Program-made: the position numbers and the translations under genes
Shown: positions 35,397 through 57,606 of the stretch, one piece after another
Position numbering within the stretch: position 1 is the stretch's first letter
How the letters are laid out: each line of letters opens with the position of its first letter
Notes under the pieces: model-generated
What the model saw: the letters and a program-made list of their open reading frames with translations, nothing else
Database searches by the model: none
Told to the model about the DNA's origin: nothing
Source: Candidatus Omnitrophota bacterium
Lineage (GTDB): Bacteria > Omnitrophota > Gorgyraeia > 1-14-0-20-64-10
Direction: 5' to 3'
NCBI GenBank assembly: GCA_023248155.1
Contig: JAHFFE010000008.1
Span: 6,515-70,514, forward strand
Length of the DNA: 64,000 nt

Positions 35397-35564
35397 AAAG
35401 AATTTTTCCTCAAAAAATTTTCCATCCGGTTTTTCTCGCCAGTTGTTTGCTTTCACGCTATAATAAATAAACAAGAACCTGACCCTCATCTCGTCGGCCA
35501 GGAGTACAATCGGCTGCCGGGGTGGGGGAATTTCTTCCGGCGCTTTTAAAACAGATTGCGATTG

Positions 35565-40085: not shown

Positions 40086-43000
40086 ATGAAGAAAATCAGA
40101 TTTCGTCAAACCATCGCGATTGGGCTGCTGATGGCGTTCTCCGTTTCATCGGTGACGCCGGGAGGGGCGGCCGTATCCTCCAGCCGCGCCGACACGCTGC
40201 GCGCGCTGAATGTTTCCGAAGCGGATAACTCTGGTTTGGAAGAATCCCTTAAACGTCCTGATTTTTTGGCGTCGGCGGAGCCGTCCGTCCGTCCAGCCAG
40301 TCTGCCTGGTGCCCAGACAAATCCACCGCAGCGCCGCCGGTGGCCTTTAGTCGTAGCCAGCCTTTTGGCTGTTTCTTTCTTATTTCCCTCTCTGATCGGT
40401 CCTGAAAAGAAAGATCAAAATCCTAAAGTACAACCTCCACCTCCGATCACTCAGCGGGTTGCACGGAAACTCCGTGTGCCGCCGCCCATTCCCGATCGTC
40501 CATTGCCTCCCATCCCTGAGATTGATAAAGAAGATGCTCCTTTGCGTGATTTGCAGGCAGGAATTCTCGAGATTCTCGCCCGTTTCTCAGAACCGGGCGG
40601 AGTGCTTCGCCAGCAGGAAAGAGACCGGACCGAAAAACTATTCGATAAGGGCGCAGTCGGAAAAAACCAGGAACTATTCGCAAACTTCAATACGCTTCGT
40701 GATCGTGTTTTTGTCAGACAAGCCGCTGCCATCCGGATTCTGGAAGAATATATTACCGGTGATGAGAAAACACGGAACAATCTTTGGGACGATTATAAAG
40801 CGGCCATTGATGCCTGGTTTGACGCGCAGCAGGATGAACTCGAAGCGCGGGTTGATCTGACTTCCTATTTGCTTGACCAGGCGCGTAGTTTACATGCCAA
40901 GGGAGTAATTGGCGAACAAGACCTTATTAAAAAAGAAGTAGCTCACGACAGCGCCAGACTGATGGTGCGGGAGTTTTCACTTTACCGTCGATTTTTTGTG
41001 AATTTGAGAAAAATCGGGGTGGCATTGCCGTTTCCAAAAACCCAGCTGCCGGCGGCCGGCGGCAATTTCGTTCCTCAACTGGTTCCGCCAATCCCCAATG
41101 GCGAGCCGTCGCTTTCAGTGTTGGAAAAGCAGGAAATCCTTCTGGAATCGTACGATCTTATACAGGAACTTTTAACGCTCTACCAGGACCGTTTGCGACA
41201 GGGGCAGAAAATCAGGATCGATCATTTGCGCCGCATCGTCGCTCTGCGTGAAAAAAAAGTGGCCACTCAAATAGAGTTAGATCGCGCCCATTTCTTGAAT
41301 CAGCAGGCCGCATTAATGGAAATTCAGATCCGCCGTTTGGAAGACCAGAGGCAGTTTGTCGAGGCCTATAAAATTCTGGTGACGACCGAAGGCCTGGATC
41401 AGCTGCCGTTGAAATATCTGAATCATCCGCTGGTGCGCCGTGCTACCGGCGAAATTGCACTTGAATTGGGTTATGCCAAATCGGCTGGTGAGGCGCTGGA
41501 GTTTGATCCGTCCATAATTCTTTCTGTCATAGGGGACTTAAACCCAATTCGCACACTGATCTTTTTAAATGCGCAGCAAGATTTAACAACGGCCGTGTTG
41601 AAAGAAGCGGATGGTTTGGTTGAAACACTGCAGCTGCCTGAGGGCGCCGGGAGCAGGATGGGATTGGTTGCCTATACCGGAGCCGTGCTGCGGTCCTCAC
41701 TGGTTGCCAATCGCCGATTGCCAAATACCATTACAATACGGGAAATTCTAACTCAGCAGCATCAATACGATCAGGCGAAACTGCAACAGGAAGCCGGCCA
41801 ACTTGTCCGCCAGCAGATTTTACTCCGGATCAAACTGGGGCTTCCAGTCGGCGATGTCGAATCGACGCTTTCTCCGGAGGGCCGCCGTACGCTGGAGTTT
41901 TCTTCAAACGGTGTTCTACAGCCCGGATCTTTGAAAGATTTTGATGAAACGGATGATTTGACTCCCGAGATCGGGCAGGACAATCGCGCGCGCTTACTCG
42001 AGATCGGACAGCTTGTCAGAACGGCATTCGGCACAAGAGATCGGCTTACTCCGTTGCAGATCCGCCAATCGAGCGATGAACTACTGGATGCGGAACAGCG
42101 TCTTATGGCGGTGCGGATTCGCAGTCTTGCCCGGCAGAAAGAGTTAAATTCGGTGCTGACTGCCCAAGTCAGGGAAGGCGTGAAAACTGGCGCCCTCAAT
42201 AAAAGAGAATTGGCCGATGCCGAAGCATGGGAAGAACAGTCACGCGTGGGAGATGCTGAATCGGCCCGTTTGTTGGTTGATTTATTGAGCCGTAAACAGC
42301 TTTCTCGTGAGCAATTGGCGCAACTGCTGGATGTTGCTCCGTCAAAATTAGCCGGTCGTATTCCGGCCGGTGCCAAAGAAGTGATTGAGCGATTGAATGG
42401 CCCTGACTGGTTTGCTCCGGCCGCCGTGATTGGTCCGGAAAATCTCGACGAGTACCCGCTATGGAGAGCCGAGCATAACCGTCTGGTGAATGACGAACGG
42501 CAGATTTTACGGGATGCGCAAGCCAGCCGCACCACGGAGTTGAGTAAGCGTCTTGATCAAGAGAAGGCACTGGTTAAAACAAGGACTTCCACCCTGCAAT
42601 CTGAAGAAGCAGCCCAACATGATTTGACTCAGGGGGGAATGCAGCTGAATTTGCTCGGACGGTCTCGCGAGATGGATGAATGGCTTCGGGATCACGGGAT
42701 CGATCTTCCCAGTCCGATTGATCCGCGGCCTGCCGGATTACCGACGATAGATGATTTAAGAAATGGTTTACGCGGCCGCAACTTACCGCTTCAGCCGGAA
42801 GCTCCATTCTATGTTGCGATTCCCGGCCAGGCCGATAGTAAAGCGCTCAGTGCCGGATTTTATGCGCCCGATGCGGTTGTTTTTCTGTCCGGGCCTCCAA
42901 AAACCTCTCCCGATCATATTCGGGCGCCTGTTTTTGGCGTGGATGACTGGAATGTGCTGAAAGAATTTTTTACGGGTGCTTCAATCACCGATTCAAATGC

Positions 43001-44315
43001 CAACGGTGAGCCGCGGCTCCGGTTAGGCCGTGTTACGGTGAATCAGGTGAATCCCTCTACCGATTTTGATCGGGGCAACGGACGGGCTGTTATCCATCTG
43101 GATGGGTATGAGTTGGTGAGGCGTCCGGCGCAGTTTGCTCCGGGGTTGCTATCGAGTTTGGCGGAAGCGTGGAATCCCCAGCTGGTTCCGGAAGAAAAAG
43201 TAGAAGATCGAAAAATGGTGGTTGGTTATTATGTGCGGGTTGTCGAAATTGGTGATGACGGCGTCGAACGGAAAAGAGTGGTGGGGGTCCTTCCGGCGGA
43301 AATGTCATGGACTCAGGGGGGACGATTGTCTGAGAAAATGTCATTACCCAATCAAAATCCGAATTCATTCCCCAATTATCTTAAAGAAGTTGCTCCAAGG
43401 CACTACGGGTGGATTACGCCGATTGACAGCTTGTTGTCTGATCCGGCGACTGGCGAGCCGCTGGTTTTCAGAAAGGAAGGCAATGAGTTTGTCTATTTGA
43501 GAGTTCGTCTTTATCAGCGGGACCTGGCTGACGGCACCATTGAAGACGAGCTTGGTTTTGATGAAGAGCCGGTGGTTGTTCCGGAGGAGGAAGAAGAAAA
43601 TCTACAACTGCCGGTGCCGGTCGCGCCGCCGGTTAACCCGGCTCCTCAACAACCGAATGCTGCCGCGCCTGTTTTACCGCTGCCGGAGCCGGCTGTCCGC
43701 GAGGTGAAACTGCTTCTGACTCAGCTTCCGTCCGGCGATTTTGCCGTCCATACCTATGCAGGAACCTATCGGATGGATGGCTTATCCATCGGGCAGGCCC
43801 CTAGCAATGCTTTTGATGAATGGCTGGCAAACCACTCCTCTGACGGGGCTCTTCTTGCGAAAGAGCCGTTGAATTTGCTTCCGATCGAGCTGTCATCCAA
43901 CGAACAGATTTTTATTGAAAGCGGATTGATGGCGGAAGCAGACCGAGTTGCTTTGTCGCGGCAATTGGCGATGTCCGGCATCACCAATGTCAACATTCAT
44001 TGGGTCGGCAGCAACCAGGATGAGGTTAGCGCTGTCTCCGATACCGTTCTCGCGCTTCGCCAGACTGGAACGCCGGTTGTGATGATGGTCAGCCCGGCGT
44101 ACCAAGGTGCGCTCGAACGGATGTTTGGTATCGGGGGTATTCATAAAGAACTTCGGCCGACGATCGGTATTGTGAGCGGCCTTGCCAATACAAGGGTTGT
44201 TTTGATGGCGTTGTTGACCAATATGGCGTTTCTTTCCCGCTTAACGGTTTTTGACGGTGTTTCATCCGGTCTTGAAGAGAACGCCACGGCGTCTGTTTTC
44301 CAATTCATGGCGTAA
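40086..44315 (+). CDS. Large secreted/anchored coiled-coil protein, paralog B (1,409 aa). Signal peptide, TM anchor, Pro-rich spacer, conserved N-module, shared-type C-terminus.
   Basis: ATG at 40086 gives MKKIRFRQTIAIGLLMAFSVSSVTPGGAAV (signal). A hydrophobic anchor WPLVVASLLAVSFLFPSLIG follows. There is a Pro-rich stretch, PPPPITQRVARKLRVPPPIPDRPLPPIPE. The N-module WDDYKAAIDAWFDAQQDELEARV...IGVALPFP is paralogous to the genes at 35565 and 46417. A long coiled-coil region is present. Confidence 0.8.
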   Translation: MKKIRFRQTIAIGLLMAFSVSSVTPGGAAVSSSRADTLRALNVSEADNSGLEESLKRPDFLASAEPSVRPASLPGAQTNPPQRRRWPLVVASLLAVSFLFPSLIGPEKKDQNPKVQPPPPITQRVARKLRVPPPIPDRPLPPIPEIDKEDAPLRDLQAGILEILARFSEPGGVLRQQERDRTEKLFDKGAVGKNQELFANFNTLRDRVFVRQAAAIRILEEYITGDEKTRNNLWDDYKAAIDAWFDAQQDELEARVDLTSYLLDQARSLHAKGVIGEQDLIKKEVAHDSARLMVREFSLYRRFFVNLRKIGVALPFPKTQLPAAGGNFVPQLVPPIPNGEPSLSVLEKQEILLESYDLIQELLTLYQDRLRQGQKIRIDHLRRIVALREKKVATQIELDRAHFLNQQAALMEIQIRRLEDQRQFVEAYKILVTTEGLDQLPLKYLNHPLVRRATGEIALELGYAKSAGEALEFDPSIILSVIGDLNPIRTLIFLNAQQDLTTAVLKEADGLVETLQLPEGAGSRMGLVAYTGAVLRSSLVANRRLPNTITIREILTQQHQYDQAKLQQEAGQLVRQQILLRIKLGLPVGDVESTLSPEGRRTLEFSSNGVLQPGSLKDFDETDDLTPEIGQDNRARLLEIGQLVRTAFGTRDRLTPLQIRQSSDELLDAEQRLMAVRIRSLARQKELNSVLTAQVREGVKTGALNKRELADAEAWEEQSRVGDAESARLLVDLLSRKQLSREQLAQLLDVAPSKLAGRIPAGAKEVIERLNGPDWFAPAAVIGPENLDEYPLWRAEHNRLVNDERQILRDAQASRTTELSKRLDQEKALVKTRTSTLQSEEAAQHDLTQGGMQLNLLGRSREMDEWLRDHGIDLPSPIDPRPAGLPTIDDLRNGLRGRNLPLQPEAPFYVAIPGQADSKALSAGFYAPDAVVFLSGPPKTSPDHIRAPVFGVDDWNVLKEFFTGASITDSNANGEPRLRLGRVTVNQVNPSTDFDRGNGRAVIHLDGYELVRRPAQFAPGLLSSLAEAWNPQLVPEEKVEDRKMVVGYYVRVVEIGDDGVERKRVVGVLPAEMSWTQGGRLSEKMSLPNQNPNSFPNYLKEVAPRHYGWITPIDSLLSDPATGEPLVFRKEGNEFVYLRVRLYQRDLADGTIEDELGFDEEPVVVPEEEEENLQLPVPVAPPVNPAPQQPNAAAPVLPLPEPAVREVKLLLTQLPSGDFAVHTYAGTYRMDGLSIGQAPSNAFDEWLANHSSDGALLAKEPLNLLPIELSSNEQIFIESGLMAEADRVALSRQLAMSGITNVNIHWVGSNQDEVSAVSDTVLALRQTGTPVVMMVSPAYQGALERMFGIGGIHKELRPTIGIVSGLANTRVVLMALLTNMAFLSRLTVFDGVSSGLEENATASVFQFMA

Positions 44316-44325
44316 ACGCGCTAAA

Positions 44326-46401
44326 ATGGGCGACATGATCAGAAAAACAATTACGGCGATAGTTGCCGGGTCGATGGCGCTGGTTTCTTCAGCGCCGGCA
44401 TCTCTTTTTATCAATTCTGCTCAGCCAGTTTGTCTGCGTTCCCTCCAGGGCGGTGAATCATTTAGAGTTATTTCGGGTATGGAAGAAAAACTAACTGCTC
44501 AAACAGTTACCGGTGCTTCCGATTCCGGAGCGCTCGATCGGCGTACTGTGCTTAAGGCAGGTGCTCTCAGCATAGGCGCTTCCATTCTAAAGTGGGCTCG
44601 ATTATTGCCCGACGATGCCATTTTTGGACAGGAGGGGAAAGCGGTGCAACCTAAAGGCGCTCTGTCTTTGCTGGCCAAAGAATTGGGTGGTAGAAGCGAT
44701 CTTTCGATCATTGTTTGGGATCCATCCAGCATCGGGGGACTTCCCGGTTTTTTTGATCGGGCAGTTCAGGCCGGCGTGACCCGCGTCTGGGTCAGCGGAT
44801 TCCGGTTCAATCAGATGGACAATGCCCGCCAGAAAGCTTTTTTTAATCAGGCTCGCGTTTCCGGCCTGCGCTCCATCGGGTTCATTGACGGTAATTACGA
44901 TTGGGCTAACAATCCCGCGTTTGTAAAATCACATTACGAAAAACTGATTGTCACACTAACCCAGTTTCACAATGATAAATTATTGGGTCGTCTCAAAATC
45001 GTGTTTGCGGCCGATATTGAGCCTTGGACCGGGCCCAATGGAAAGAATTGGAATGGTGATTTCAAGCCGTCGACCGACTTGGTTTGTAACTGCGTTATTC
45101 CGGAAATCAGCGGATTTGCTCAAAGAACAGGCCGTGTTGATAGAACAAATCTGATTACGCTCGTTATGCCATTCTGGTCTCAGAATGGTACGAAGCTGGA
45201 TAATGACCTCGTGGTTAAAGGAGTTGAAGATCTACCCAATACCACGCTGGCTCTGATGAGTTACCGGAATTCCGCTCTTGAAATCGAAAGTGTTCTTAAT
45301 GACACGCGAAGTCGTTTAAGAACAACACCGGCACGGGATCTCCGCTGGGCGTTCGGAGGAGAGACGCTTCCACCCGGTGAAGTAGGCGGGCAGCACGTCA
45401 CTTTTCACGGAAGATTAAAACGGGTTCCTCTGGAACTGTTGCGTGTGATCCGCCGGCTTTCGGAGAGTGAGCGTAAACAGTTGGATGAGGTTTTTATTCA
45501 TTTTGCAAGTCCTGTTGCCGCCGATAAAGCGATTAAGGAATGGCTGGAGAGTCCTGCTGAGGAACCGGCAAAAGGAAAAGATTTTTCAGTCAGAGGCGGC
45601 CAGGCAAAGATATCCAAAGATGGTTCGCGTCTGGAATTTCAAATGGATCTGGGCGATTTGGCCGATCAATCGTTAGTCGCTGTGGCACTGGTGAGAACCG
45701 ACACCTGGTATCCTCAACCGTATGATAATGCAAGCGCCCAGGTACCGGTGCAGGTGGATAAGGACGGTGTTGGCAATGTGGTCGTGTTTGCGGCCGACCG
45801 GAGCTCGTTTGTCGGAGAACAAACGAAAGGCCGCGCCGTGATCATTCTGACACCCACTGATTTTCAAGCTGTAGTAAAAGACAGACTCAACCCCGCACGG
45901 TTAGAACTCCGCGCTCAGAAAATCATCGTATTCGATAAAGAGGGAAAAGCCTCGGTTGTTAATCGGTTGCCTCGCGGCGGTCTGGAAGAATCGATCCGGC
46001 TTCCGGCGCATGCGACCGATGAACGCGTTATTATTTTGACGCCGGACACCGCTGTCGTCGGCCTGGAACTGCTGCGCGGATTTCGTCCCGAGGCAGGCGA
46101 GAAAATCCCGGTGGCGGTGATTGTGCGCAACGCGGTTCAACATTCCCAATTGCTTGATTTATTGGAGGCCCAGTCGATTCAGCTGCAGTTTCCGGTCGTT
46201 GACCTTTCTGAGACGGGCCAAAATCTTGGGGAGGCCATCGTTGCGCTTCAGGAAGATGCCTGGATTGCCTCTCTCAATCCGTTAGTGATCGACACGATGG
46301 CCGCGTTCCGCCAGCTGGGCACATTCCTCGGTATTCCTGAACTGGACCAGCGCCTGCTGGACAAATGGCTGGACGAACAGGGAGTCGCTTCCGCGGCGTA
46401 A
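44326..46401 (+). CDS. Secreted protein (~691 aa from ATG 44326; alternative start 44479 gives a Tat-type leader). Its C-terminal ~110 aa are nearly identical to the C-terminus of the 46417 gene.
   Basis: The track ORF 44251..46401 overlaps the upstream gene, so an internal ATG is the likely start. ATG 44326 gives MGDMIRKTITAIVAGSMALVSSAPASLF (signal-like). The downstream MEEKLTAQTVTGASDSGALDRRTVLKAGALSIGASIL is a textbook twin-arginine leader if translation starts at 44479. The C-terminal PLVIDTMAAFRQLGTFLGIPELDQRLL is shared with the next gene. Confidence 0.7.
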   Translation: MGDMIRKTITAIVAGSMALVSSAPASLFINSAQPVCLRSLQGGESFRVISGMEEKLTAQTVTGASDSGALDRRTVLKAGALSIGASILKWARLLPDDAIFGQEGKAVQPKGALSLLAKELGGRSDLSIIVWDPSSIGGLPGFFDRAVQAGVTRVWVSGFRFNQMDNARQKAFFNQARVSGLRSIGFIDGNYDWANNPAFVKSHYEKLIVTLTQFHNDKLLGRLKIVFAADIEPWTGPNGKNWNGDFKPSTDLVCNCVIPEISGFAQRTGRVDRTNLITLVMPFWSQNGTKLDNDLVVKGVEDLPNTTLALMSYRNSALEIESVLNDTRSRLRTTPARDLRWAFGGETLPPGEVGGQHVTFHGRLKRVPLELLRVIRRLSESERKQLDEVFIHFASPVAADKAIKEWLESPAEEPAKGKDFSVRGGQAKISKDGSRLEFQMDLGDLADQSLVAVALVRTDTWYPQPYDNASAQVPVQVDKDGVGNVVVFAADRSSFVGEQTKGRAVIILTPTDFQAVVKDRLNPARLELRAQKIIVFDKEGKASVVNRLPRGGLEESIRLPAHATDERVIILTPDTAVVGLELLRGFRPEAGEKIPVAVIVRNAVQHSQLLDLLEAQSIQLQFPVVDLSETGQNLGEAIVALQEDAWIASLNPLVIDTMAAFRQLGTFLGIPELDQRLLDKWLDEQGVASAA

Positions 46402-46416
46402 TGTGGTGATAATCCT

Positions 46417-49400
46417 ATGAAAAAACAATCAGTTTTTTATCCTCGAAAAGTAATCGCTTTTTTTATTTTTTTGGTATTTCTTTCAACCAGCGTCGGAGTC
46501 AACCCATCGTCCAAAAATTTCCCGGATGTTTCGCCTGACGCGCTGCGAGCCGTTAGCGGCGCGGAGTCGGCGGCTCAGCCGGGACTTGAAGAGTCTCTGA
46601 AAGAATCCGCCGGCCTATCTCGCAGCGGATGGTCGCTTAATTGGCTGGCCGGTATTACATTTGCGTTAACGGCAGCGTTGGATTGGGGCGAACCGGTGGC
46701 TGCCCAACAGGCGCAGCCGTCCCCGTTCGTAGCGACCCTCGATAATTTTCCGTCCGGCCCGGAATACAGTCGTTCCTCTGAAACCTTGAACCGTTATTTG
46801 AAAACCCTGGTGCCGGAACTGCCAGGGCCGGTCATTCTGACGCCGGGCGCCACGGTCCGTATCATCGCTATTCATGAGACTAAAGACCAAACAGGAGAAA
46901 TCGACGGCGCCTATGTGACGCTGACGCCTTCGAAGGAAACGATTGTGGTGCGCGCCGGTGACAACCGCTGGCTGGTTCCCGCCGGTGTTTCGTTAAAAGT
47001 CCATATCGACCGCAGGAAAAAAGAAACGCGCGTTTACCGTGAATCGGAAGTCACACGGCTGGCGGTTGAATTATCTGACATTGCCGGGCTTTCTGATCTG
47101 ATGGACCGTTTTGATGTGGAGGGGCCGGTCGTTGGCGCAACGCGGTTTAAATCCAGCGGAAAACTGGTGATGGGAGGAATTATTTATCGCGACGGGGGCG
47201 TTCGCCATTGGAATATTGTGCCGATTGATCCGGGATCTTCCGTTACGGTGATCGCGCCCGATGGCACGGAATCGACGGTGCCGGCCTTAAAACCGTTGCG
47301 TTTGATTATTCAAGACGGACAAGCGCGCATTGATCCGAAACAGCAATACAGTTCGGTGCGAAAGCCGGCATTTTTGCCGCCGGCGGTAACAGGCCGCTTC
47401 GATGCGGTGCCGGTGGTCGAAAACCCGAGCCCGATCGTCCGATCGAGCCGTGCTGCTCAGCCGGTTCCGGCTGCTTCGGTCCGCCGTTTCATTCCGCCGA
47501 AATTGGATCCGGAACTTCCGAAAATTCCGGAGCTGCAACTGGTAGCGGCGATTCCATCCAGTGTGACGGCCCGGCCGGCCGCAGATTCTCAATTCACGGA
47601 CTCTCGCAAAAAAGAGCCGGCTCCAATGCCGATGCCGGCCGATCTGCCGCGGACGGCTCCGGTCATAGCAGCAGACCGCGTCCGTGTCCGGCAAAATCCG
47701 CGCAATCCGGATCTGTCTCCGAATGTTGGACGGAACGATTCGGGTCCCGGCCCGTCCTCTCCGGATATTGCCGTGAAAGATAGAACACCGGTTCCTCCAG
47801 CAGAGGCATCGCCGGTTGCGTTGGCTCCAATTGCAGCGGGGGAGGCTCCCGTTCGCCGTGTTGCACCGGTTCCTCCTGTGGATCTCCCGGTTCCGCCACC
47901 CTCCGTCGTAGCCGGTGGTAATTCTCTGGTCCGTTTGGATCGTTTGCCGCGCGAGCCGGCGGTTTCACCGGTGCCCGCTCGCTCGATTCCAGAAAGTGAG
48001 TTATTTTCGGAGAGTCTTAATTTCGCGGATCGATCGCCGGTGATTGACGCTCCTCAGCCACATCCGAAATTGGCCGAACCGCCGGTAGGTGTCGTTAATA
48101 CCACACGTCGCCGAGCCCCGGCGTCAAAGCCGGCGGAAGAGTTAATCTCTCCGGTGCCATTGTCAGAGCCACTTTCAGCGGAATCGACTGTTGAATTACG
48201 CAAGATTGAAGGGGATATCCTTAACAGCATGGCGCGATTACACCAGTGGGCCGTCGATGCTCTCAACAATCATGCGGCCCGCGTGGCCGAACAGCGGCAA
48301 AAGAAAGCAGGCACCCCGGCGGATAGAAACATTGCCGATTTCAACACGCTGAAAGCCGATGTCGATGCGGCAATGGGACGTGTTATTCTTGTCCTGCGCG
48401 ATTATGTCAGGGCCGATGGCCCGGCGCGCGCCGGTTTTTGGAACCGGTATCAACAGGCAGTCCAGAATTGGTTTGACGCGCGCGAGCGGCAGGTTGGCGC
48501 TTATCTGGAACTGGCCGATGATTTATTACAGCGCGATCGTCAGTCGGCTTCCAACCAAGGCAATACCAGCACGCGTGACCTAGAGCGGTCGCAGGCTGCC
48601 AGCGAAATTGCCGGATTCACGCTTCTGGAATTAACCGCCTTCCGTAATCTGTACGACGACCTCATTGAGCTGGGTGTTCCGGTTCCGTTCCTGAACGCGG
48701 CTATGCCCGATGAAATTGGTTACACGCCCTATTCCGTTCCGGTCATTCCCAGTTTGCAAAAGCCGGCAGCCGCGGCCGACCGTGCCCGTTTTTTAGAGAA
48801 GGCCTTCAATCAAATCGCCGAAATTTTACGGCTGAACAGTCAAAAACTGGGTGTTGATATCCGATTGCGTCTATCGGAATACCAGCGGTTTAAAAACAAT
48901 TTCTATTCCACTCCGCGGGGAGGCACGTTACCTCAAGGCACGAGCAGGGAAGAGATGAACTATGCCAGTTTTCTCAGGGATGAGGCGATTTTTCAGCGGG
49001 CCCAACAGCAGCGCCTTTCGGCTCAAATCAATTTTGTTGAAGCATTACAAGTTTTGTCGCAGACGCAGGGGCAGCCGTTTTTGCCGGCTGACAATGAACA
49101 GGTGCGTGCGGTTGTGGCCAACTATGCCGTTGAACATGGATACCCTCCTGACATTGGTCAGGAGGTGGTTATTTCGGTGGTTGGTTTAAGAACGGTGCGC
49201 GACACGATCTTTATCTCCGCCCAGGAACGGCTTTCGCGGGCGATCTCGGATGAAATGGCGGCGCGGGTTGTTCTGTCTCAAAAATTAATCGTCTACCTCC
49301 AGGATGACTTCAAACGGATGGTTCATGCCAACCTACGTGTTCCCGGCGCCTACCCTGCCTGGGACATTTTCGTTGCCGAATATAAACTCCGGCAGGCTCG

Positions 49401-51615
49401 GCAACAACTCGCGATCACTCAACTTGCGCAGGAAAACGATACGGTCAGAGCTCAGCTTGGTTTACCGCGCAGTAATATTGAGCTGGCTGTGCCGCCAGCA
49501 GTGCGCAGTATTCTGGAAACCAATAGACAGTCGCTTCTGCCGGGTTCTTCCATCACGGAATCAACGGATAGTTTTAAAGAATGGATTAAAGGGGCTGATG
49601 CCAGCGTTTTATCGCCGTTGGATACCGCAGAGAACCTTGCGGCCACTTTTCTGGGATTGGTAAATCCTCCGTCAGAGCCCAAGGCGGATGATTTGGTTCG
49701 CCGGCAGGCCGAAAACGAGCGGAAGATGCTCGAGGCCAAAATCAAGATGCTTGAAAACGAAAACTGGCTGGCCAAGGCGTTGGCCTCTATCCGTGAATCA
49801 ACCGAAGCAACCCATCCCGGATCTGTAACGAAGCCGGAATTGGAAGATGCCCGTAACTGGCGCGCGCAAATTGAACTGAGAAACGCGGAAATAGCCGTAA
49901 TTCGTGCCGATATCGTCCGGCTAGAACCTGGGTTGGATCCGGTCCGGTATGCCGAGCTAAGAGGGGAGTACAATCGGCTCGTTTTAGAGCGGTTGCGTGT
50001 TGCCAGCCGAGTTAATAGAGAGCGGATGGATGTTCTTGATGGCCGCTTGAAGATTGAGGGAATTCTGGAATTGAATGCCGAAGCCTGGAGGAGGTTTGAC
50101 GCCGCTTACGCGGCGGGTACTCCGCAACCTCTTAACCAGATTTTAGGACAACTCAGGAATGCGGGAGCTGTCCGCCGCACTGATTCCATTGACAGAGCGA
50201 TTCAAAGCTGGGGACAGACAAACGATTATGGCAAGCTGTTAGAACAAGCGCTCGCGCGTAATGAAGAACTGGTTCAACGGGGCGCTTCGCTCGATGCTCA
50301 CTCGTCTCGGCCGGCCTTGCCGACGCTTGAAACGGTTCTTTTCGATAATAGTAGTAAGTCGCAAACCTATCCGGATAACCGTTCCGAGGTTTTCACGGTC
50401 ACTTTGGGCAAAGGGGGAGTTCCTCAGCCGCTGCAGATTGCCGGCCCTTTCCGTATGGACGCGCTGGTTATTCCGTCCTATGTTTCTCCGCGTGTCGAGC
50501 CCTATCAGAATGCGCATGATGATCTTCGTCCCCGGGACTGGCAAGCTCCGCGCGATTCACTCGAGAAAGTCGATCTTCTTGACTCGACTGCGCCCACCGC
50601 ATCCGGCCGGTTCGGCGCCGGGTCTTTCTTCCGTTACCGGCAAACGCCCGCTCTTTCTTCCGAAAACACGACCGGCCTGTCGACATTCCTGAGGCCGGGT
50701 GTATTACGCGTCGATCCACGGGTGGCCTCTATGCCGGTTCCGGGCGTTCGCGCTTCATGGGATCCTAATAAGAAACAATGGACTTTGCCTGACAAGGCTG
50801 AAGACCGCCAGGTCGTTTATTTTTATCCGGTGCGTAAATTAGATATTGTGTTTGAAAATGGGAAATGGGTTCCCCGGGTAAATTTATTTGGAATTGTTCC
50901 TCAGCCTGTTTCGTGGAGAGAAGCGGGTCAACTGGCAGAAACACCCCAACGGACTTTAGGTCCGAACCGGAGCGTTTCGAGAGTGGGAGAATATGTAACC
51001 GATCCATTGACGGGGGATCCCTATGTTTCTTTTAATGTGGAGGGTGGTTTTTCCAGATACCGTATTAATGTGACCTCGTATCAAACCCCTGAAGGAAAAG
51101 TTGAGCAGGAGTTCAGTTTTATTTCCGAGACTATTGGCGATACCGATGCGCCGCGTTCTGCCATAATTGGAACCGCGGCCGCCGCATCCGGACAGGAAGA
51201 ATCGATTGTACTTCCGGCCGGCGCGACCAACGGCAATATAATTATTTTCACGCCAGAGACGGTCGAGGCTGGGGTTGAACTGATGCTGAATCGGTTTCGC
51301 TTGGCGGCCGGAGAGAAAATTCCGGTGGCCGTGATCGTGAGCGACGCCGTTCAGCATTCCCATGTTTTGGATTTACTGGAAGGCCAACCTGTTGAATTAC
51401 TGTTTCCAATCATGGACCTTTCCGTGACTGGAGATAGCCTGAAAGAGGCGATTGATGCGCTTGCGGCAGATGCCGAAAGTTACTCGCTAAAACCGCTGGT
51501 CATCGACACGATGGCCGCGTTCCGCCAGCTGGGCACATTCCTCGGTATTCCGGAACTGGACCAGCGTTTGCTGAACGAATGGCTGGATCAGCAGGGAGTT
51601 GTTTCCCAGGCATAA
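46417..51615 (+). CDS. Large secreted/anchored coiled-coil protein, paralog C (1,732 aa). Signal peptide, TM anchor, long Pro-rich low-complexity stalk, conserved N-module, beta-rich C-domain, shared C-terminal domain.
   Basis: ATG at 46417 gives MKKQSVFYPRKVIAFFIFLVFLSTSVGV (signal). An anchor WSLNWLAGITFALTAALDW follows. A Pro-rich stretch is encoded at ~47400-48160. The N-module WNRYQQAVQNWFDARERQV...LGVPVPF and the C-domain VDPRVASMPVPGVRASWDP...YFYPVRKLDIVFENGKWVPRVNL are paralogous to the 35565 gene. The last ~120 aa match the 44326 gene. Confidence 0.85.
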   Translation: MKKQSVFYPRKVIAFFIFLVFLSTSVGVNPSSKNFPDVSPDALRAVSGAESAAQPGLEESLKESAGLSRSGWSLNWLAGITFALTAALDWGEPVAAQQAQPSPFVATLDNFPSGPEYSRSSETLNRYLKTLVPELPGPVILTPGATVRIIAIHETKDQTGEIDGAYVTLTPSKETIVVRAGDNRWLVPAGVSLKVHIDRRKKETRVYRESEVTRLAVELSDIAGLSDLMDRFDVEGPVVGATRFKSSGKLVMGGIIYRDGGVRHWNIVPIDPGSSVTVIAPDGTESTVPALKPLRLIIQDGQARIDPKQQYSSVRKPAFLPPAVTGRFDAVPVVENPSPIVRSSRAAQPVPAASVRRFIPPKLDPELPKIPELQLVAAIPSSVTARPAADSQFTDSRKKEPAPMPMPADLPRTAPVIAADRVRVRQNPRNPDLSPNVGRNDSGPGPSSPDIAVKDRTPVPPAEASPVALAPIAAGEAPVRRVAPVPPVDLPVPPPSVVAGGNSLVRLDRLPREPAVSPVPARSIPESELFSESLNFADRSPVIDAPQPHPKLAEPPVGVVNTTRRRAPASKPAEELISPVPLSEPLSAESTVELRKIEGDILNSMARLHQWAVDALNNHAARVAEQRQKKAGTPADRNIADFNTLKADVDAAMGRVILVLRDYVRADGPARAGFWNRYQQAVQNWFDARERQVGAYLELADDLLQRDRQSASNQGNTSTRDLERSQAASEIAGFTLLELTAFRNLYDDLIELGVPVPFLNAAMPDEIGYTPYSVPVIPSLQKPAAAADRARFLEKAFNQIAEILRLNSQKLGVDIRLRLSEYQRFKNNFYSTPRGGTLPQGTSREEMNYASFLRDEAIFQRAQQQRLSAQINFVEALQVLSQTQGQPFLPADNEQVRAVVANYAVEHGYPPDIGQEVVISVVGLRTVRDTIFISAQERLSRAISDEMAARVVLSQKLIVYLQDDFKRMVHANLRVPGAYPAWDIFVAEYKLRQARQQLAITQLAQENDTVRAQLGLPRSNIELAVPPAVRSILETNRQSLLPGSSITESTDSFKEWIKGADASVLSPLDTAENLAATFLGLVNPPSEPKADDLVRRQAENERKMLEAKIKMLENENWLAKALASIRESTEATHPGSVTKPELEDARNWRAQIELRNAEIAVIRADIVRLEPGLDPVRYAELRGEYNRLVLERLRVASRVNRERMDVLDGRLKIEGILELNAEAWRRFDAAYAAGTPQPLNQILGQLRNAGAVRRTDSIDRAIQSWGQTNDYGKLLEQALARNEELVQRGASLDAHSSRPALPTLETVLFDNSSKSQTYPDNRSEVFTVTLGKGGVPQPLQIAGPFRMDALVIPSYVSPRVEPYQNAHDDLRPRDWQAPRDSLEKVDLLDSTAPTASGRFGAGSFFRYRQTPALSSENTTGLSTFLRPGVLRVDPRVASMPVPGVRASWDPNKKQWTLPDKAEDRQVVYFYPVRKLDIVFENGKWVPRVNLFGIVPQPVSWREAGQLAETPQRTLGPNRSVSRVGEYVTDPLTGDPYVSFNVEGGFSRYRINVTSYQTPEGKVEQEFSFISETIGDTDAPRSAIIGTAAAASGQEESIVLPAGATNGNIIIFTPETVEAGVELMLNRFRLAAGEKIPVAVIVSDAVQHSHVLDLLEGQPVELLFPIMDLSVTGDSLKEAIDALAADAESYSLKPLVIDTMAAFRQLGTFLGIPELDQRLLNEWLDQQGVVSQA

Positions 51616-51668
51616 TCGTTTGTTTAAAGTGCGTTTAGTCCTTGTTTTTGAGATAAAATAGTAATGGA

Positions 51669-54122
51669 ATGCCTAACAAACGGTTTTTTATCGGCCTGAT
51701 TATTTTGGGAGCCGCGGCGCTGACGGTGTCGGCTGCTTCGGCCGCGGAGCCTGATTTTTGGTCCCGCTTGAAACAGGCGGTCCGTTCGACCGTTTCCCCT
51801 CAAAAAACCGAACAGAAAAAGCCCGAAACAGTTGTCCCGGCGCCGCCCGCTCCGATTGTAAAAAAACCGGCGGTCCGCGAACCGCCTCCCAAAATGCTCG
51901 TTGACGATTTTGAAATCGGCGAAACGCACGGCATTTTCAAGGAACGCAAGAACCGCATCGACGCGTTCCAGGGCACCTGGGCCAAGCCGCCTTCCTACGC
52001 GCTGATCACGAAAGTTCCCGATACGCGGCCCGGCTATTCCGGCAACTCACTGCGCATTGAATTCAACAAGCAGGGCGGCTGGTGCGGCTGGTACACGCTG
52101 CTCAACGGCATCGATGTTTCCGGCTGCAACGCGCTGACGTTCTGGGTCAAGGGCGAGCATGGCGGCGAACGGTTCGACATCGGTCTTTCCGACGACCGGA
52201 TGCAGGAGATGGAGGTCGATTCCATTTATCTGGGCGCCGTAAATACCTATCTGCCCGACGGCGTGACGACCGAATGGCAAAAAGTACGCGTGCCGCTGGA
52301 GGCGATCCGCTCCGAAATAAATTTAAAGAAGATGGGCTGTCTGGTTTTCTGGTTCCGCTATGAGAGCCACAGCGCCATTCAGATCGACGATATCGGCTTT
52401 GATAATGATCCCGAGGTTGAACGGATTCAGAAGGAAAATACTCCGCGCGCCGAACCCGATCCGCGCGCGCCGCGTGCTCTCTGGGTATGGAAGTATGACC
52501 TGGTCAACCAGCCGCAAGTGCGCGCCGACTGGTTCCCGTTTTTTGAACAGACGGCGATCCGAACGATTTACCTCTACATGGGCGAGGAGCCGGTCAGCCA
52601 CTGGCCTTCTGACCAGCAGAAAAATCTGGCACAGTTTTTGAAAGAGGCCCACGCCCGCAAATTGGAAGTGCACGCACTGCAGGGCAACCCGCTCTGGGCC
52701 TTAAAAACGATGCACCCGAAAGTGATCGCCTGGATCAGCGGGTTCCTCGATTTTAACGCCGCGCACTCGCCGGAAGAACGGATCGACGGCATCCATATGG
52801 ACATTGAGCCGTACCTCACCCAGGAATGGGAAACCGGCGACCGCGACCGCCTGAAAAAAGAGTTTCTGGAACTGCTCGATCTCTGCCGCCAGTTGATTGA
52901 CAAAAAAGCGGTGGCCACCGACCGCCCCTGGGCCGTCGGGCCGATGGCCAAAAAACCGTTTGTGATGGGGCTGGCCATTCCGCTGTTTTATGATCAGGAA
53001 CCGGAAATGGAAGAAAAACTGCTCAGCTACCTCGATTATGCCGCGCTGATGGATTATTACGATTCGTCCCGCGACATCATTGCCGAGGGTTGGCCGCACA
53101 TTAAGCGCGCTCAAAAAGCCGGCGTTCAGATGGTTGTCGGCGTCGAGACGCAGGACCTGGTCCAGATGAACCAGGGCAAGCGCCGCAACACTTTTTTTGA
53201 AGAAGGCTGGGAAGAGATGGAACGCGACATCGCCCGGACGATCGGCGCGTTCGCCGGTAATCCCAGTTTTGCCGGCATCGCGGTCCATTGCGATTACTCC
53301 TACCGCAGCCTCCAGCGCGGCCGCAATGTTCCGACGCACGAACGGTCCGGGAAAATTCCGCGTATTGCCGCCGATCTGGGCAATAAAAAAATTTCCATCG
53401 ATGGAGATCTGTCCGAATGGGCCGACGCGAAATGGATGAAAGTCGACCAGCGCGAGCAGGTGGTTTACGGCGTCGGCGCTTGGGGCTGGGCGCAGGATAT
53501 GTCGTACAAGGCGGCCGTCCGCTGGGAACCGAAAGCGCTGTTTTTGGCGCTGGATGTGACCGACAACCAGGTTGTTCAGGAGAAAGCGGATAAAGATCTT
53601 TGGGAGGGGGACCATTTCGAGCTCTGGCTTGACGCCGATCTTTATGAGGATTACAGCGAAGCCGTTAACTCCGCCGATGATTTCCAGATCGGCATCAGTC
53701 CGGGTAATTTTAAAAATCTGCCGCCCCAGGTCTATGTCTGGGTGCCGTCCGTTTCACCTGAATCGGCCGCGCTCGTGCAGATTGCCGCCAAGCCGAAATC
53801 GCCCGACGCAAAAAACAAATCGGGCGGCTATACCATCGAACTGCGCATCCCGGTTGCGTTCTTATTCCAGAATATCCAGAAGCGCGTCGGTGTCGATCCG
53901 GGTGAGGTGAGCGCGCCGCGCGGCGTTACGCTCGAGTCAATGGTGCTGAATATCGGCTGTTTGGAGGCCGGCGAGTTGAAGCCCGGTTTCAAACTCGGCA
54001 TGATGATTGACGGGTCCGACACCGATAATCCATCCCAGCCGCAGAAATGTCTGCTCTCCACTTCGGTGGAACGGCAGTGGGGAGACCCGACTACGTTTAA
54101 CATTGTGGAGCTGGAAGAATGA
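51669..54122 (+). CDS. Secreted multidomain carbohydrate-active-like protein (817 aa). Signal peptide, ~110-aa beta-sandwich (CBM-like) module, glycoside-hydrolase-like TIM barrel (DGIHxD motif), CBM9-like domain.
   Basis: The N-terminus MPNKRFFIGLIILGAAALTVSAASAAEP is a signal peptide. The module GGWCGWYTLLNG...LTFWVKGEHGGERFDIGLSDD...YLPDGVTTEWQKVRVPLEAI is paralogous to modules in the next three genes. ALWVWKYD...IYLY...LEVHALQGNPLW...DGIHMDIEPY is paralogous to the 56626 gene and resembles GHL/YngK-type TIM barrels. DGDLSEWADAKW...LWEGDHFELWLDAD matches the CBM9-like family pattern. Confidence 0.7.
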   Translation: MPNKRFFIGLIILGAAALTVSAASAAEPDFWSRLKQAVRSTVSPQKTEQKKPETVVPAPPAPIVKKPAVREPPPKMLVDDFEIGETHGIFKERKNRIDAFQGTWAKPPSYALITKVPDTRPGYSGNSLRIEFNKQGGWCGWYTLLNGIDVSGCNALTFWVKGEHGGERFDIGLSDDRMQEMEVDSIYLGAVNTYLPDGVTTEWQKVRVPLEAIRSEINLKKMGCLVFWFRYESHSAIQIDDIGFDNDPEVERIQKENTPRAEPDPRAPRALWVWKYDLVNQPQVRADWFPFFEQTAIRTIYLYMGEEPVSHWPSDQQKNLAQFLKEAHARKLEVHALQGNPLWALKTMHPKVIAWISGFLDFNAAHSPEERIDGIHMDIEPYLTQEWETGDRDRLKKEFLELLDLCRQLIDKKAVATDRPWAVGPMAKKPFVMGLAIPLFYDQEPEMEEKLLSYLDYAALMDYYDSSRDIIAEGWPHIKRAQKAGVQMVVGVETQDLVQMNQGKRRNTFFEEGWEEMERDIARTIGAFAGNPSFAGIAVHCDYSYRSLQRGRNVPTHERSGKIPRIAADLGNKKISIDGDLSEWADAKWMKVDQREQVVYGVGAWGWAQDMSYKAAVRWEPKALFLALDVTDNQVVQEKADKDLWEGDHFELWLDADLYEDYSEAVNSADDFQIGISPGNFKNLPPQVYVWVPSVSPESAALVQIAAKPKSPDAKNKSGGYTIELRIPVAFLFQNIQKRVGVDPGEVSAPRGVTLESMVLNIGCLEAGELKPGFKLGMMIDGSDTDNPSQPQKCLLSTSVERQWGDPTTFNIVELEE

Positions 54123-55315
54123 ACAAGCAGTCATTGCGCAATGACATGTTCTTCGTTCTCGTTTTATGCTTAATGCTGTGCGCCACCCCTGTTTTTGCCG
54201 CCGAGGTCTCCGTTAGAGACGTCCCGGCATTCCCGGAGGGTACCGCCATTCTTCCGATTGAACAACCGCGCATGCAGCGCGGCCGGTTTGGCGCCTATGC
54301 GATGAGTCCCTCAAAAATGGGTATTTTCCCGGACTTCAAAATAGCAAAACGGCCGGGGTCGTCGGTGGAACCGATGTATGTCCGCTTTCGCAAAGAACCG
54401 GGGCCCTCTTTTTGCGGTTCTTACTGGATTATTGCCGGCGATTTGCGCAAATACGCCACGCTGACCTTCTGGATCCGCGGCGAGCGCGGCGGCGAGAATT
54501 TTGAAATCGGCCTCAATGACTTAATCGCCAGCCGCCGCGAAGATGCGATCATGGGAGGCTCCATTTACCGGTATCTTCCGGGCGGCATCACCAAAGAATG
54601 GCAGCAGGTGAAAATTCCGCTCGAAGATTTTTTCGGCGCCGATTTTTCCCGCATACACAGCCTTGTTTTTTCGTTCTCTGATCCGGGGGAGGGAGCGCTC
54701 TGGATCGACGGCTTTGTTTTCCATGAAGAAGCGCTGGTCCAGCGGGAGGACGAAATCATCCGATCGGGCGAACTGCTGCTGGACAACTTCGACCACAGTG
54801 ATTTGAACCTGCTGGGCCGCAAAACCAACGCTTACAAAAAAACACCGTCGTTTTGCGCGGCCAGCCGTGTTGAGAAACCGCGCCGTGGAAACCAGGGCCG
54901 CTCGTTGCGCCTCGATTATGATAAGCAGTCGACCGGGTGGGCCGGTTATTTTTCGCTGTTTAACCAGATTGACGGCGCTTATTACGATTTAAGCCAATTT
55001 AAGGAGATCCGTTTCTGGGTCCGCGGCGCGCGCGGTAAGGAGGTTTTTGATGTCGGCATGGCCGACCGTTCCTGGTTGACTATTGGTGATTCGGTCAAAT
55101 GTGGTACAATAGATAAATACTTAAAAAAAGGCGTCACAAAAGATTGGCAGGAAGTAGTAATTCCGTTTAAAGATTTTGGCAAATTAGATTGGTCACAAAT
55201 GGGTTCTTTTGTGGTAAATTTCTCTAGGCCGGCAAAAGGAACCCTTTTTGTGGATGATGTCCGGGTGATTCGGAAATCGGACGAAGAACTGCTGAAGGAG
55301 TGGGATAAACAATGA
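54119..55315 (+). CDS. Secreted protein with two tandem beta-sandwich (CBM-like) modules (398 aa).
   Basis: There is an ATGA overlap with the upstream stop. The signal peptide is MNKQSLRNDMFFVLVLCLMLCATPVFAAEV. There are two copies of the FW(I/V)RG..G.E.F.IG(L/M).D ... YL..G.TK.WQ.V.IP motif (CGSYWIIAG...FWIRGERGGENFEIGLND and WAGYFSLFN...FWVRGARGKEVFDVGMAD). Confidence 0.75.
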   Translation: MNKQSLRNDMFFVLVLCLMLCATPVFAAEVSVRDVPAFPEGTAILPIEQPRMQRGRFGAYAMSPSKMGIFPDFKIAKRPGSSVEPMYVRFRKEPGPSFCGSYWIIAGDLRKYATLTFWIRGERGGENFEIGLNDLIASRREDAIMGGSIYRYLPGGITKEWQQVKIPLEDFFGADFSRIHSLVFSFSDPGEGALWIDGFVFHEEALVQREDEIIRSGELLLDNFDHSDLNLLGRKTNAYKKTPSFCAASRVEKPRRGNQGRSLRLDYDKQSTGWAGYFSLFNQIDGAYYDLSQFKEIRFWVRGARGKEVFDVGMADRSWLTIGDSVKCGTIDKYLKKGVTKDWQEVVIPFKDFGKLDWSQMGSFVVNFSRPAKGTLFVDDVRVIRKSDEELLKEWDKQ

Positions 55316-55923
55316 AAATAAAGCGGGTCCTGGTTTTGGTTCTGGTTCTTTTTTTTCTGTCGGGACCTCTTCGCGCGTCGGCCGACTCCGTTTTGGTGGA
55401 TGATTTCGAGCAGGAAGCGGCTAATAAGGTAGGCGGGCGCACCAACAGCTATGTGATGGCGCCCTCGCGCGTGCTGGCGCTGCGCGTCACCGAGAACGCG
55501 CACGGCGGCAAAAAAGCGCTGGTGCTCAAATACGATAAGAAGGGCACCGGCGGTCCGTACGATTCCGGCGGGTGGTGTGGTTATTACACCATGCTGAAAG
55601 TCGGTTCGCGTTATTACGACGCTTCCGGCGCGAAAGCGATTTCGTTCTGGGTGCGCGGCGACCGGGAAGACGAAAATTTCGTGATTGGCCTTTCCGACAA
55701 ACATTGGGATGAGCTGGGTGATTCGGTCAAATCAGAGCCGGTGGTGCAGTATCTTCCGGCCGGAAAGATCACCAAAGAGTGGCAGAAAGCGACGGTTCCG
55801 CTCAGCGCGTTTATGCTGGAAGCCAAGGAACTGGCCTCGATCGCGATCTGTTTTGAAGGATCGATTTATCCCGGCGGTGAATCGCGGGGAACGGTGTACA
55901 TCGACGACTTGATGTTGGAGTAG
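55312..55923 (+). CDS. Secreted single beta-sandwich (CBM-like) module protein (203 aa).
   Basis: There is an ATGA overlap with the upstream gene. The signal peptide is MKIKRVLVLVLVLFFLSGPLRASA. GGWCGYYTMLKVGSRYYDASGAKAISFWVRGDREDENFVIGLSDKHWDELGDSVKSE...YLPAGKITKEWQKATVPLSAF is a clear paralog of the next gene. Confidence 0.8.
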   Translation: MKIKRVLVLVLVLFFLSGPLRASADSVLVDDFEQEAANKVGGRTNSYVMAPSRVLALRVTENAHGGKKALVLKYDKKGTGGPYDSGGWCGYYTMLKVGSRYYDASGAKAISFWVRGDREDENFVIGLSDKHWDELGDSVKSEPVVQYLPAGKITKEWQKATVPLSAFMLEAKELASIAICFEGSIYPGGESRGTVYIDDLMLE

Positions 55924-55966
55924 GGGTTATGGCATATTTAGAGTGGGTCAAGAGGAGGGAACTAAA

Positions 55967-56629
55967 ATGAAGAAAATGATTTGGGCAGTTTCTCTGCTGG
56001 TGCTGACGATGACCGCTTCCGCGTTCGCCGCTCCGGTGCTGGTGGACGATTTCGATCACGAAGATGGAGCCAAGAACTCGCTGGGCAACCGTGCCAATGT
56101 GTTCATAAAAGCTCCGTCCAAGGCAATGGTCACCGCCCGCAAGGAAACGGTGCAGGGCAAGCCGACGCAGGTGTTGATGCTTAAGTATGACAAGCGCAAC
56201 AGCGGCGGCCCGTTTGATTCGGGTGGGTGGTGCGGTTATTACACGCTGCTGAAGTCGGCCGCCGCGCTGGTGGCTCCGACGCCGCAGAATCCGAACCCGC
56301 CTGCCGGTACCGACAAGTACCTCGATGCCAGCGGGTTCAAGGATCTCAGCTTCTGGGTCCGCGGTGAGAAGGGCGATGAGAATTTCGTCGTCGGTGTTTC
56401 TGACCGGCAGTGGGACAAGCTGGGTGATTCGGTCAAGTCCGAGGAGATCGGCAAATATCTGCCGGCCGGCAAATTGACCAAGGATTGGCAAAAGGCGACC
56501 ATTCCGCTGAGTGAGTTCTTCATCGATCACTCGCAGTTGGCCGCGGTCTCCATCGTGTTTGAAGGAGACCTGTTTCCTGAAACCGGACACCAGGGTACGA
56601 TCTACATCGATAACGTCGAGCTCGAGTGA
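55967..56629 (+). CDS. Secreted single beta-sandwich (CBM-like) module protein (~220 aa).
   Basis: The track ORF starts at GTG 55943; ATG 55967 is preferred because it sits 7 nt after AGGAGGG and gives MKKMIWAVSLLVLTMTASAFAAPV (signal). GGWCGYYTLLKS...LSFWVRGEKGDENFVVGVSDRQWDKLGDSVKSEEIGKYLPAGKLTKDWQKATIPLSEF is ~60% identical to the 55312 protein. Confidence 0.8.
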   Translation: MKKMIWAVSLLVLTMTASAFAAPVLVDDFDHEDGAKNSLGNRANVFIKAPSKAMVTARKETVQGKPTQVLMLKYDKRNSGGPFDSGGWCGYYTLLKSAAALVAPTPQNPNPPAGTDKYLDASGFKDLSFWVRGEKGDENFVVGVSDRQWDKLGDSVKSEEIGKYLPAGKLTKDWQKATIPLSEFFIDHSQLAAVSIVFEGDLFPETGHQGTIYIDNVELE

Positions 56630-57606
56630 ATCGTTCTTTAAGAACGGGGGGTTTCTGGTTTAAGAGAGCCCTGACGGCCGTTGTGCTGTCAGGGCTTTTT
56701 TCTTTGTTTGGCATCGGCGCGGTGGGGCCGTCCTTCGTTGGCGCCGAGGAATCCTCCGAGGCCGATGCTGCCGCGGCGCCGAAAGTCAGCGCGATCTGGG
56801 TCTGGGACGCGCGCATCGTGGTGGTCGACGCGGCGCGCGCGGGTCTGCTGGCGTTTTGCCGAAAGCACAAGGTGAATATGATTTATCTTTCGGCGTACGA
56901 TCTGCGTCCGCCGATGGATGAATCGTACCGCACGTTCAACGTCGACGCGCACCGAAACGGAATTACCGTGCAGGCGCTGGCCGGCGATCCGCGCTGGGGA
57001 AAAACGCAGTATCACCATATTCCGATGCAGTGGATCGAATCGGTGCTTCAGTTTAACCGCCAATCCAACCCGCAGCAGCGCTTCGACGGCATTCACGCCG
57101 ACGTCGAGCCCTACTTGCTCTCAAAGAGTTGGAAAGAACAGCCGGCCGCTCTGCTGGGCGGGTACCTCGACCTGCAGTCCAAAGTGATGGGTCAGGTGCG
57201 CGGGCAGGGCGTTTCCTACGGCGTCGATATTCCGTTCTGGTTTGATGATGACACCAATTACCGCATTGAATGGCAGAGCCAGATCAAAACACCGACTCAG
57301 CATATCCTCGACACCGTCGACTCGATTACCGTGATGGCCTACCGCAATTTCGCGGAAGGCGACGATGGCACGGTTCACCTGGTTGCGCTGGAGCTGGAGT
57401 ACGGCGACAAGGTCGGCAAGAAAGTGATCATCGGCCAGGAAACTCAGCCCGACATGTTCCCGGCCTATATTTCTTTCGGCGGTACCTCTTATAAAAAACT
57501 GGTTGAGGAACTGGCCAAGATTGAAGGGGCTGTCGGCGGACGTTCCAGTTTCGGCGGTTTCGCGATCCACCATTACGACAGTTACCGGAAACTCTGCGGT
57601 GAATGA
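56626..57606 (+). CDS. Secreted glycoside-hydrolase-like TIM-barrel protein (326 aa), paralog of the central domain of the 817-aa protein.
   Basis: There is an ATGA overlap with the upstream gene. The N-terminal hydrophobic signal/anchor is ALTAVVLSGLFSLFGIGAVG. AIWVWDARIVV...MIYLSAYD...ALAGDPRWGKTQYHH...FDGIHADVEPYLL aligns with ALWVWKYDLV...IYLY...ALQGNPLWALKTMH...IDGIHMDIEPYL of the 51669 gene. Confidence 0.7.
   Translation: MNRSLRTGGFWFKRALTAVVLSGLFSLFGIGAVGPSFVGAEESSEADAAAAPKVSAIWVWDARIVVVDAARAGLLAFCRKHKVNMIYLSAYDLRPPMDESYRTFNVDAHRNGITVQALAGDPRWGKTQYHHIPMQWIESVLQFNRQSNPQQRFDGIHADVEPYLLSKSWKEQPAALLGGYLDLQSKVMGQVRGQGVSYGVDIPFWFDDDTNYRIEWQSQIKTPTQHILDTVDSITVMAYRNFAEGDDGTVHLVALELEYGDKVGKKVIIGQETQPDMFPAYISFGGTSYKKLVEELAKIEGAVGGRSSFGGFAIHHYDSYRKLCGE

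Follow-up and report, generated by a model that had tools for sequence, protein, structure and literature searches.

A 65-nt near-identical tract at the 3' ends of two neighbouring genes of a Candidatus Omnitrophota bacterium, probably left by a recent gene conversion

Ectopic (interlocus) gene conversion between paralogues is known in bacteria, for example between the tufA and tufB genes of Salmonella and in multigene families under concerted evolution. In polymorphic toxin loci of the Rhs and CdiA type C-terminal modules are exchanged, and homology at the module borders can drive recombination. We have analysed a 64,000-nucleotide stretch of DNA from a Candidatus Omnitrophota bacterium (GenBank assembly GCA_023248155.1, contig JAHFFE010000008.1, positions 6,515 to 70,514 of the forward strand), here called the window. 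Two adjacent genes of the window, designated E and F, end in paralogous copies of one C-terminal domain (CTD), and towards the 3' ends of both genes the DNA is almost identical over 65 nt. We put the probability at roughly 0.7 that this tract reflects a recent and short ectopic gene conversion between the two directly oriented paralogous 3' ends, at a distance of 5214 nt from each other. The coordinates of all features are collected in Table 1.

The tract resembles the products of ectopic gene conversion in that it is short, includes silent sites and is set within otherwise diverged paralogues of the same genome; the two copies are also close together and in direct orientation, with no dedicated machinery encoded nearby. 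It differs from concerted evolution in being a single stretch of ~65 nt, while the rest of the domain is saturated at silent sites. As in the Rhs and CdiA loci, E and F are adjacent genes for large, apparently secreted proteins with modular C-termini in common. Unlike in those loci, the tract lies inside the domain and not at its border, the domain itself is conserved, and neither toxin/immunity pairs nor orphan cassettes are present. There is some likeness to the diversity-generating retroelements (DGRs) as well, in that two near-identical stretches lie a few kb apart, one of them at the 3' end of the C-terminal domain of a probably surface-exposed protein. However, no reverse transcriptase accompanies E and F, their mismatches are not adenine-specific, each copy is the translated end of a gene, and the homologous region is much longer than the stretch of identity.

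Candidatus Omnitrophota are known for loci that encode giant proteins (bioRxiv 10.1101/2023.11.21.568195; bioRxiv 10.64898/2026.06.07.730766). The window resembles these loci in having open reading frames (ORFs) of at least 7544 and of 4165 amino acids that lack a Pfam match, with carbohydrate-binding and sugar-metabolism genes downstream; E and F probably sit in a locus of this type. The type II secretion-like and PilZ neighbours of the published loci were, however, not seen in our Pfam scans, which covered the larger ORFs of the window and not the smaller ones.

The core of the tract is a 50-mer that is the same at all 50 positions in the two genes (46288-46337 and 51502-51551), and the window holds no other site that matches it, even with 3 mismatches permitted; 100 shuffles produced none. 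The original prediction of this identity was thus correct, as was its figure of ~96% over ~70 nt: the two copies agree at 64 of the 65 nt listed in Table 1 and at 67 of 70 nt (95.7%) when extended to 46357. The single difference within the 65 nt, T/G at 46338, is silent, and the tract is bounded by flanking mismatches at 46287 and 46353. Its 5' edge is sharp, with 3 silent differences already present in the preceding conserved codons for P-L-V. No further exact repeat of 22 nt or more was found elsewhere in the 64 kb window.

On both sides the similarity is lower than had been described. The identity was said to continue with 3-4 mismatches to the stop codons, whereas we count 13 mismatches in the 64 nt between the end of the 50-mer and the TAA stop. 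The rest of the domain, its upstream part having been put at ~75% identity, is 67-69% identical when read in register (137/200 nt upstream). A BLASTN comparison of the window with itself aligns 45978-46402 with 51189-51616 at 72.7% over 429 nt, a figure that includes the tract. In a codon alignment of the E and F domains the DNA outside the tract is ~68% identical (243/357 nt). The last 141 residues of the two proteins, tract included, share 68-69% identity, and the domain outside the tract 62%.

The excess of identity is most evident at the codon level. All 21 codons of the tract specify identical residues, and 19 of the 20 that are degenerate are themselves identical; where residues are identical elsewhere in the two domains, the same codon is used in only 39 of 74 cases (53%), a contrast with a binomial probability of 5e-5. 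By the Nei-Gojobori method the synonymous divergence (dS) is 0.068 and the nonsynonymous divergence (dN) 0 within the tract, compared with 1.30 and 0.26 outside it. The synonymous sites of E and F are therefore saturated, so the copies must have been duplicated long ago, and since the dS of the tract is ~5% of the background, the event that made it would be late relative to the duplication. When sites or codon columns were shuffled, runs as long as 50 nt (exact) or 65 nt (one mismatch) appeared in none of 20,000 trials (P<5e-5). A shuffle restricted to silent information, that is, to the flags for identical codons at identical amino acids, gave P=0.006-0.008. As a control we used a 462-nt stretch shared by the paralogous genes C and F (38991-39452 and 50692-51153), of similar divergence (~71-72% DNA identity), and its longest exact run is 14 nt. 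E and F thus combine homology within one genome, a fragment of excess identity of the Sawyer type and a drop in dS over that fragment, three of the features by which gene conversion is recognised.

The tract is not singled out in the wider family of the domain. In an alignment of 28 members from outside the window, the 21 tract columns have a mean pairwise identity of 36%, compared with 33% elsewhere, and rank 38 of 121 windows of the alignment. The closest outside relative is a protein (P0006) on a 966-nt JGI contig (locus L002); its body is F/D-like, and the start of a G-like gene comes after it. In the tract this relative matches E and F at 67% of the DNA and at 10 of 21 residues, comparable to the rest of the domain; its dN is 0.38 in the tract and 0.33-0.42 outside, and it differs equally from E and from F within the tract. 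Since this segment is not specially conserved in the family and not kept in L002, it is only the E/F pair of this genome that shows 27 identical residues in a row together with identical codons. The 50-mer is absent from the other 88 loci retrieved, and DNA encoding the same 20-residue peptide, in any choice of codons, is absent from the JGI metagenome contigs and from IMG/VR. The suggestion that the same 3' cassette might be found on other genes was therefore not borne out in the window, the JGI metagenomes, IMG/VR or the 88 loci. At two other loci (L087 and L088) adjacent genes both end in the domain and share no repeat at the nucleotide level, although those domains are much more diverged.

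Gene conversion is favoured by the contrast in dS, the sharp 5' boundary, the lack of special conservation of the tract in the family and its lack of conservation in L002; of the two explanations offered in the original prediction, it is recent gene conversion that these results uphold. The geometry also favours recombination, as the copies are directly oriented, 5214 nt apart and part of the same operon-like array. The identity, its excess, the dS contrast and the lack of wider conservation are direct observations, and from them we infer the mechanism, direction and timing of recombination. An ancestral C-terminal domain of ~140 amino acids would have been duplicated long ago to the ends of the adjacent same-strand genes E and F. 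Much later, one copy, with either E or F as the donor, would have served as template for overwriting the other by homologous, non-reciprocal recombination. The converted stretch would have been at least 65 nt long, with all differences erased, silent ones included, and the silent T/G difference at 46338 would have either arisen after the conversion or remained from before it. No separate function of the identical DNA need be assumed.

Several observations weigh against this interpretation. In comparison with L002 the synonymous divergence (pS) is also lower within the tract (0.37-0.43) than outside it (0.71-0.73); this could hint at constraint at the codon level, but the 16 sites involved are too few to interpret. 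When L002 is taken as the only outgroup, E and F come out closest to one another inside as well as outside the tract. The test on silent sites is significant but post hoc (~0.007). Moreover, both genes are seen in one genome only: word-indexed protein searches for an orthologous E/F pair in a sister genome returned the query itself or nothing, and scans of GTDB genomes and JGI metagenomes with the E/F alignment found none.

The identity might instead have been made by the assembly, if the merging of bubbles at low k or the mixing of strains had rendered similar segments identical. The source is indeed a short-read metagenome assembly (contig names k141_...). A second assembly of this DNA (ENA ERZ27280021) matches the window base for base (100% identity) across 21.4 kb, both copies included, despite having different contig breaks (k141_4085768 ends at about window position 55682 and k141_665373 begins at 55667), though it may share reads with the first. 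A repeat of only 50-65 nt cannot collapse the graph when the final k is 141; both copies stand in frame within intact ORFs and have unique flanks, and the merging of bubbles would need segments that were nearly identical beforehand. We consider an assembly artefact unlikely as the source of the identity.

It is also quite improbable that the tract is a functional DNA or RNA element kept by selection, such as a structured RNA, the target of a small or antisense RNA, a site that regulates the gene downstream or the site of a recombinase. Silent sites are conserved beyond what the protein requires, the tract has a slightly reduced synonymous divergence even in the comparison with L002, and both copies lie shortly upstream of the start of the next gene. 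However, the distance from the tract to that start codon is 65 nt for copy 1 (to F) and 103 nt for copy 2 (to G), and neither promoter-like nor terminator-like sites were found in the tract. Neither the tract itself (z-score +0.36) nor the minus strand (+0.74) nor the two 147-nt contexts (+0.73 and -0.98) fold better than shuffled sequence. When Rfam was searched with lax settings over 44000-52500, only three sub-threshold matches came back (E 0.12-0.19), all far below the gathering scores; one of them, to EAV_LTH (E 0.12; 46233-46302 on the minus strand), extends into copy 1 by 15 nt at its beginning, and copy 2 shows nothing corresponding. A structured cis-regulatory RNA is rejected by the folding z-scores and by the lack of an Rfam match at gathering score. 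For a recombination site, the Pfam scans of the larger ORFs revealed no recombinase or integrase. Nor is the sequence kept in L002 or found in another copy in the JGI metagenomes, IMG/VR or the 88 loci. The second explanation of the original prediction, an RNA element or a recombination site, thus fares poorly on folding, on Rfam, on promoter and terminator signals, on the distances to the next start and on the absence of further copies.

Purifying selection on the protein segment, combined with biased codon usage and retained by chance, could in principle give the same picture. The tract does contain L114 and L118, the two columns with the highest conservation in the family, as well as an LG-FL-IP motif, and it has many codons that are in common use (CTG, GAC, CAG, TTC). 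This explanation is nevertheless very unlikely, given that 19 of 20 degenerate codons are identical in the tract compared with the 53% found at identical residues elsewhere, with a silent-only P of ~0.007, that the 21 residues are not more conserved across the family, and that dN against L002 is as high in the tract as outside. Programmed variation, whether by a DGR or by a cassette or deletion switch of C-terminal modules acting through the repeat, can hardly be credited even though the repeats are direct and close to where the genes for C-terminal domains end at their 3' side, in proteins that look surface-exposed or secreted, since the Pfam scans of the larger ORFs found no reverse transcriptase, integrase or invertase, the mismatches between the copies (T/G, C/T, G/A and A/G, in both directions) are not restricted to adenine, both copies end complete genes and are not silent cassettes, and the domain-ending pairs of L087 and L088 lack a nucleotide-level repeat. 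A DGR in particular is rejected by the lack of reverse transcriptase and of adenine bias.

Table 1. Coordinates in the window of the homogenised tract, the C-terminal domains and genes A to F
Feature	Position	Strand	Remarks
Homogenised tract, copy 1	46288..46352	+	3' end of gene E; encodes IDTMAAFRQLGTFLGIPELDQ
Homogenised tract, copy 2	51502..51566	+	3' end of gene F; direct repeat, 5214 nt downstream of copy 1
CTD of E	45979..46401	+	~140-aa alpha/beta domain; from GLEE motif to TAA stop
CTD of F	51190..51615	+	Paralogous to CTD of E; from GQEE to TAA stop
Possible extra half CTD in E	45817..45969	+	Weak secondary hmmsearch match, profile positions 20-72; RAVIILTPTDFQAVV...KIIVFD
Gene A	76-22710	same-strand array	At least 7544 aa, runs off window start; no Pfam family
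Gene B	22899-35396	same-strand array	4165 aa; no Pfam family
Gene C	35556-39932	same-strand array	No Pfam or NCBIfam match
Gene D	40086-44315	same-strand array	No Pfam or NCBIfam match
Gene E	44326..46401	+	691 aa; signal-peptide-like N-terminus, LR...GMEE leader, unannotated body, CTD; no Pfam or NCBIfam match
Gene F	46417..51615	+	1732 aa; signal-peptide-like N-terminus, LR...GLEE leader, body paralogous to C and D, CTD; no Pfam or NCBIfam match

The domain that carries the tract has no match in Pfam or NCBIfam. A HMMER scan with the E/F domain recovered 38 proteins (clusters) among 1.84 billion representative proteins, and in all 38 the domain stands at the extreme C-terminus, in carriers ranging from 98 to 5062 aa. 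An AlphaFold2 model of the domain of F, made from an alignment of 30 sequences, has a predicted local distance difference test score (pLDDT) of 91.6 and a predicted template modelling score (pTM) of 0.86, and depicts a four-stranded alpha/beta fold with two terminal helices. In this model the tract corresponds to residues 105-125 of 141, from the end of strand 4 through helix 4 into the beginning of the last helix. Foldseek found no convincing relative of the domain in PDB (best E 0.08, TM ~0.3), and a profile search of PDB sequences found nothing. The sorting domains considered as candidates (the CTD of the type IX secretion system, PEP-CTERM and LPXTG) were rejected, given the lack of a Pfam or NCBIfam match and the four-stranded alpha/beta fold. 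Just upstream of the complete domain of E, the weak match at 45817-45969 may be a decayed partial tandem duplicate of the first half of the domain.

The carriers are often giant fusions of enzymes of sugar-nucleotide and amino-sugar metabolism. PGM/GlmM-like, NagB and DeoC modules were detected by faint or weak Pfam hits and by NCBIfam, and GHMP-kinase-, nucleotidyltransferase-, epimerase-, ROK- and HAD-like modules were recognised by eye only. The fusions include P0009, P0010, P0012, P0014, P0017, P0018, P0028, P0029, P0038 and P0040, from loci L003-L006, L087 and L088. In them, normally cytoplasmic enzymes stand behind a signal-peptide-like N-terminus, and they resemble polyproteins.

The proteins of the family share a second feature, the short motif GLEE, which occurs 104 times in 54,695 residues where 2.7 occurrences are expected (a ~40-fold enrichment). 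The residue before it is usually A, S, T or G, and GMEE, GAEE and GQEE occur as variants. Proteins A to F contain it 11 times, compared with ~0.5 expected (for example at 40233, 44268, 45979, 46582 and 51190). The motif follows the N-terminal leader, separates apparent enzyme modules and opens the C-terminal domain. Its codons vary, which indicates that it is a motif of the protein. It is possibly a site of cleavage or docking. A leader is found in 21 of 28 long proteins of the family or the window, namely in B, C, D, E and F, from the gene starts given in Table 1, and in 16 other family proteins. It consists of a signal-peptide-like segment, LR, 3-40 residues and G[LMAVQ]EE, and most of its hydrophobic segments end in a small-residue, AxA-like site; it looks like a lineage-specific sorting signal. 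A literature search for AGLEE or GLEE found nothing relevant, and neither the GLEE motif nor the domain occurs in the text of the two papers on Omnitrophota giant proteins (bioRxiv 10.1101/2023.11.21.568195; bioRxiv 10.64898/2026.06.07.730766).

At two loci from different samples the adjacent pair of genes ending in the domain is directly followed by a gene with Peptidase_S8 and a Fervidolysin N-pro-like domain (L087, 8291-10168; L088, 13371-15215). This peptidase is a candidate for a protease that processes GLEE sites.

A broader proposal, which we put forward tentatively and regard as rather doubtful, is that the C-terminal domain, the [AS]GLEE motif and the leader (signal peptide, LR and GLEE) together form an undescribed system of export, docking or processing for the giant and multi-enzyme proteins of Omnitrophota-like groundwater bacteria, in which the homogenised helix 4 would be the surface that contacts a common partner. 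In some relatives the helix-4 segment reads AGLEELGRFL. If helix 4 did contact a common partner, the conversion between E and F would have been favoured rather than neutral.

The genes around the tract show a mosaic pattern. C, D and F are paralogues, the similarity of E and F is confined to their last 141 residues, and B and C share another, different C-terminal segment. Comparisons by hhalign of the C-termini of A, C and D with the E/F domain were not significant (E 0.014, 0.055 and 0.44, each from one pair; B was not compared). The stretch common to C and F that served as the control lies immediately upstream of differing C-terminal domains, and the two proteins are 49% identical over 256 aa; the presence of this common stretch before different domains shows these proteins to be mosaics in which shared bodies are combined with C-terminal modules that can be exchanged.

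Downstream of F are genes for proteins with the carbohydrate-binding modules (CBMs) CBM30, CBM9 and CBM11, for a PDZ/TPR protein, for NagB and for a DUF4954 protein. The best matches of the DUF4954 gene among GTDB species genomes (74-76%) are in metagenome-assembled genomes of groundwater Candidatus Omnitrophota, so that this one gene points to a probable Omnitrophota source. The segment at 51669-57606 holds five secreted-looking paralogues, G to K, of which G to J have modules of the CBM30, CBM9 or CBM11 type; G has a second segment in common with K. I and J are 47% identical and include a 60-nt stretch of 83% identity (55545-55604 and 56200-56258). The ORFs at 56626-57606 and 59180-59722 gave no Pfam hit, as was the case for A to F.

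The 50-nt direct repeat could now permit rare deletion of the 5.2-kb gene F, although 50 nt is near the minimum for homologous recombination. Gene conversion is an ordinary process, of which this would be a new instance: a clean and small ectopic case in an uncultivated bacterium, and a caution for phylogenies of such domains and for the assembly of such loci. The surrounding, undescribed protein family is the more interesting lead. Work on the giant proteins of Omnitrophota states that cleavage points are lacking (bioRxiv 10.1101/2023.11.21.568195), and if GLEE is a signal for processing or docking it would supply these missing "cleavage points".

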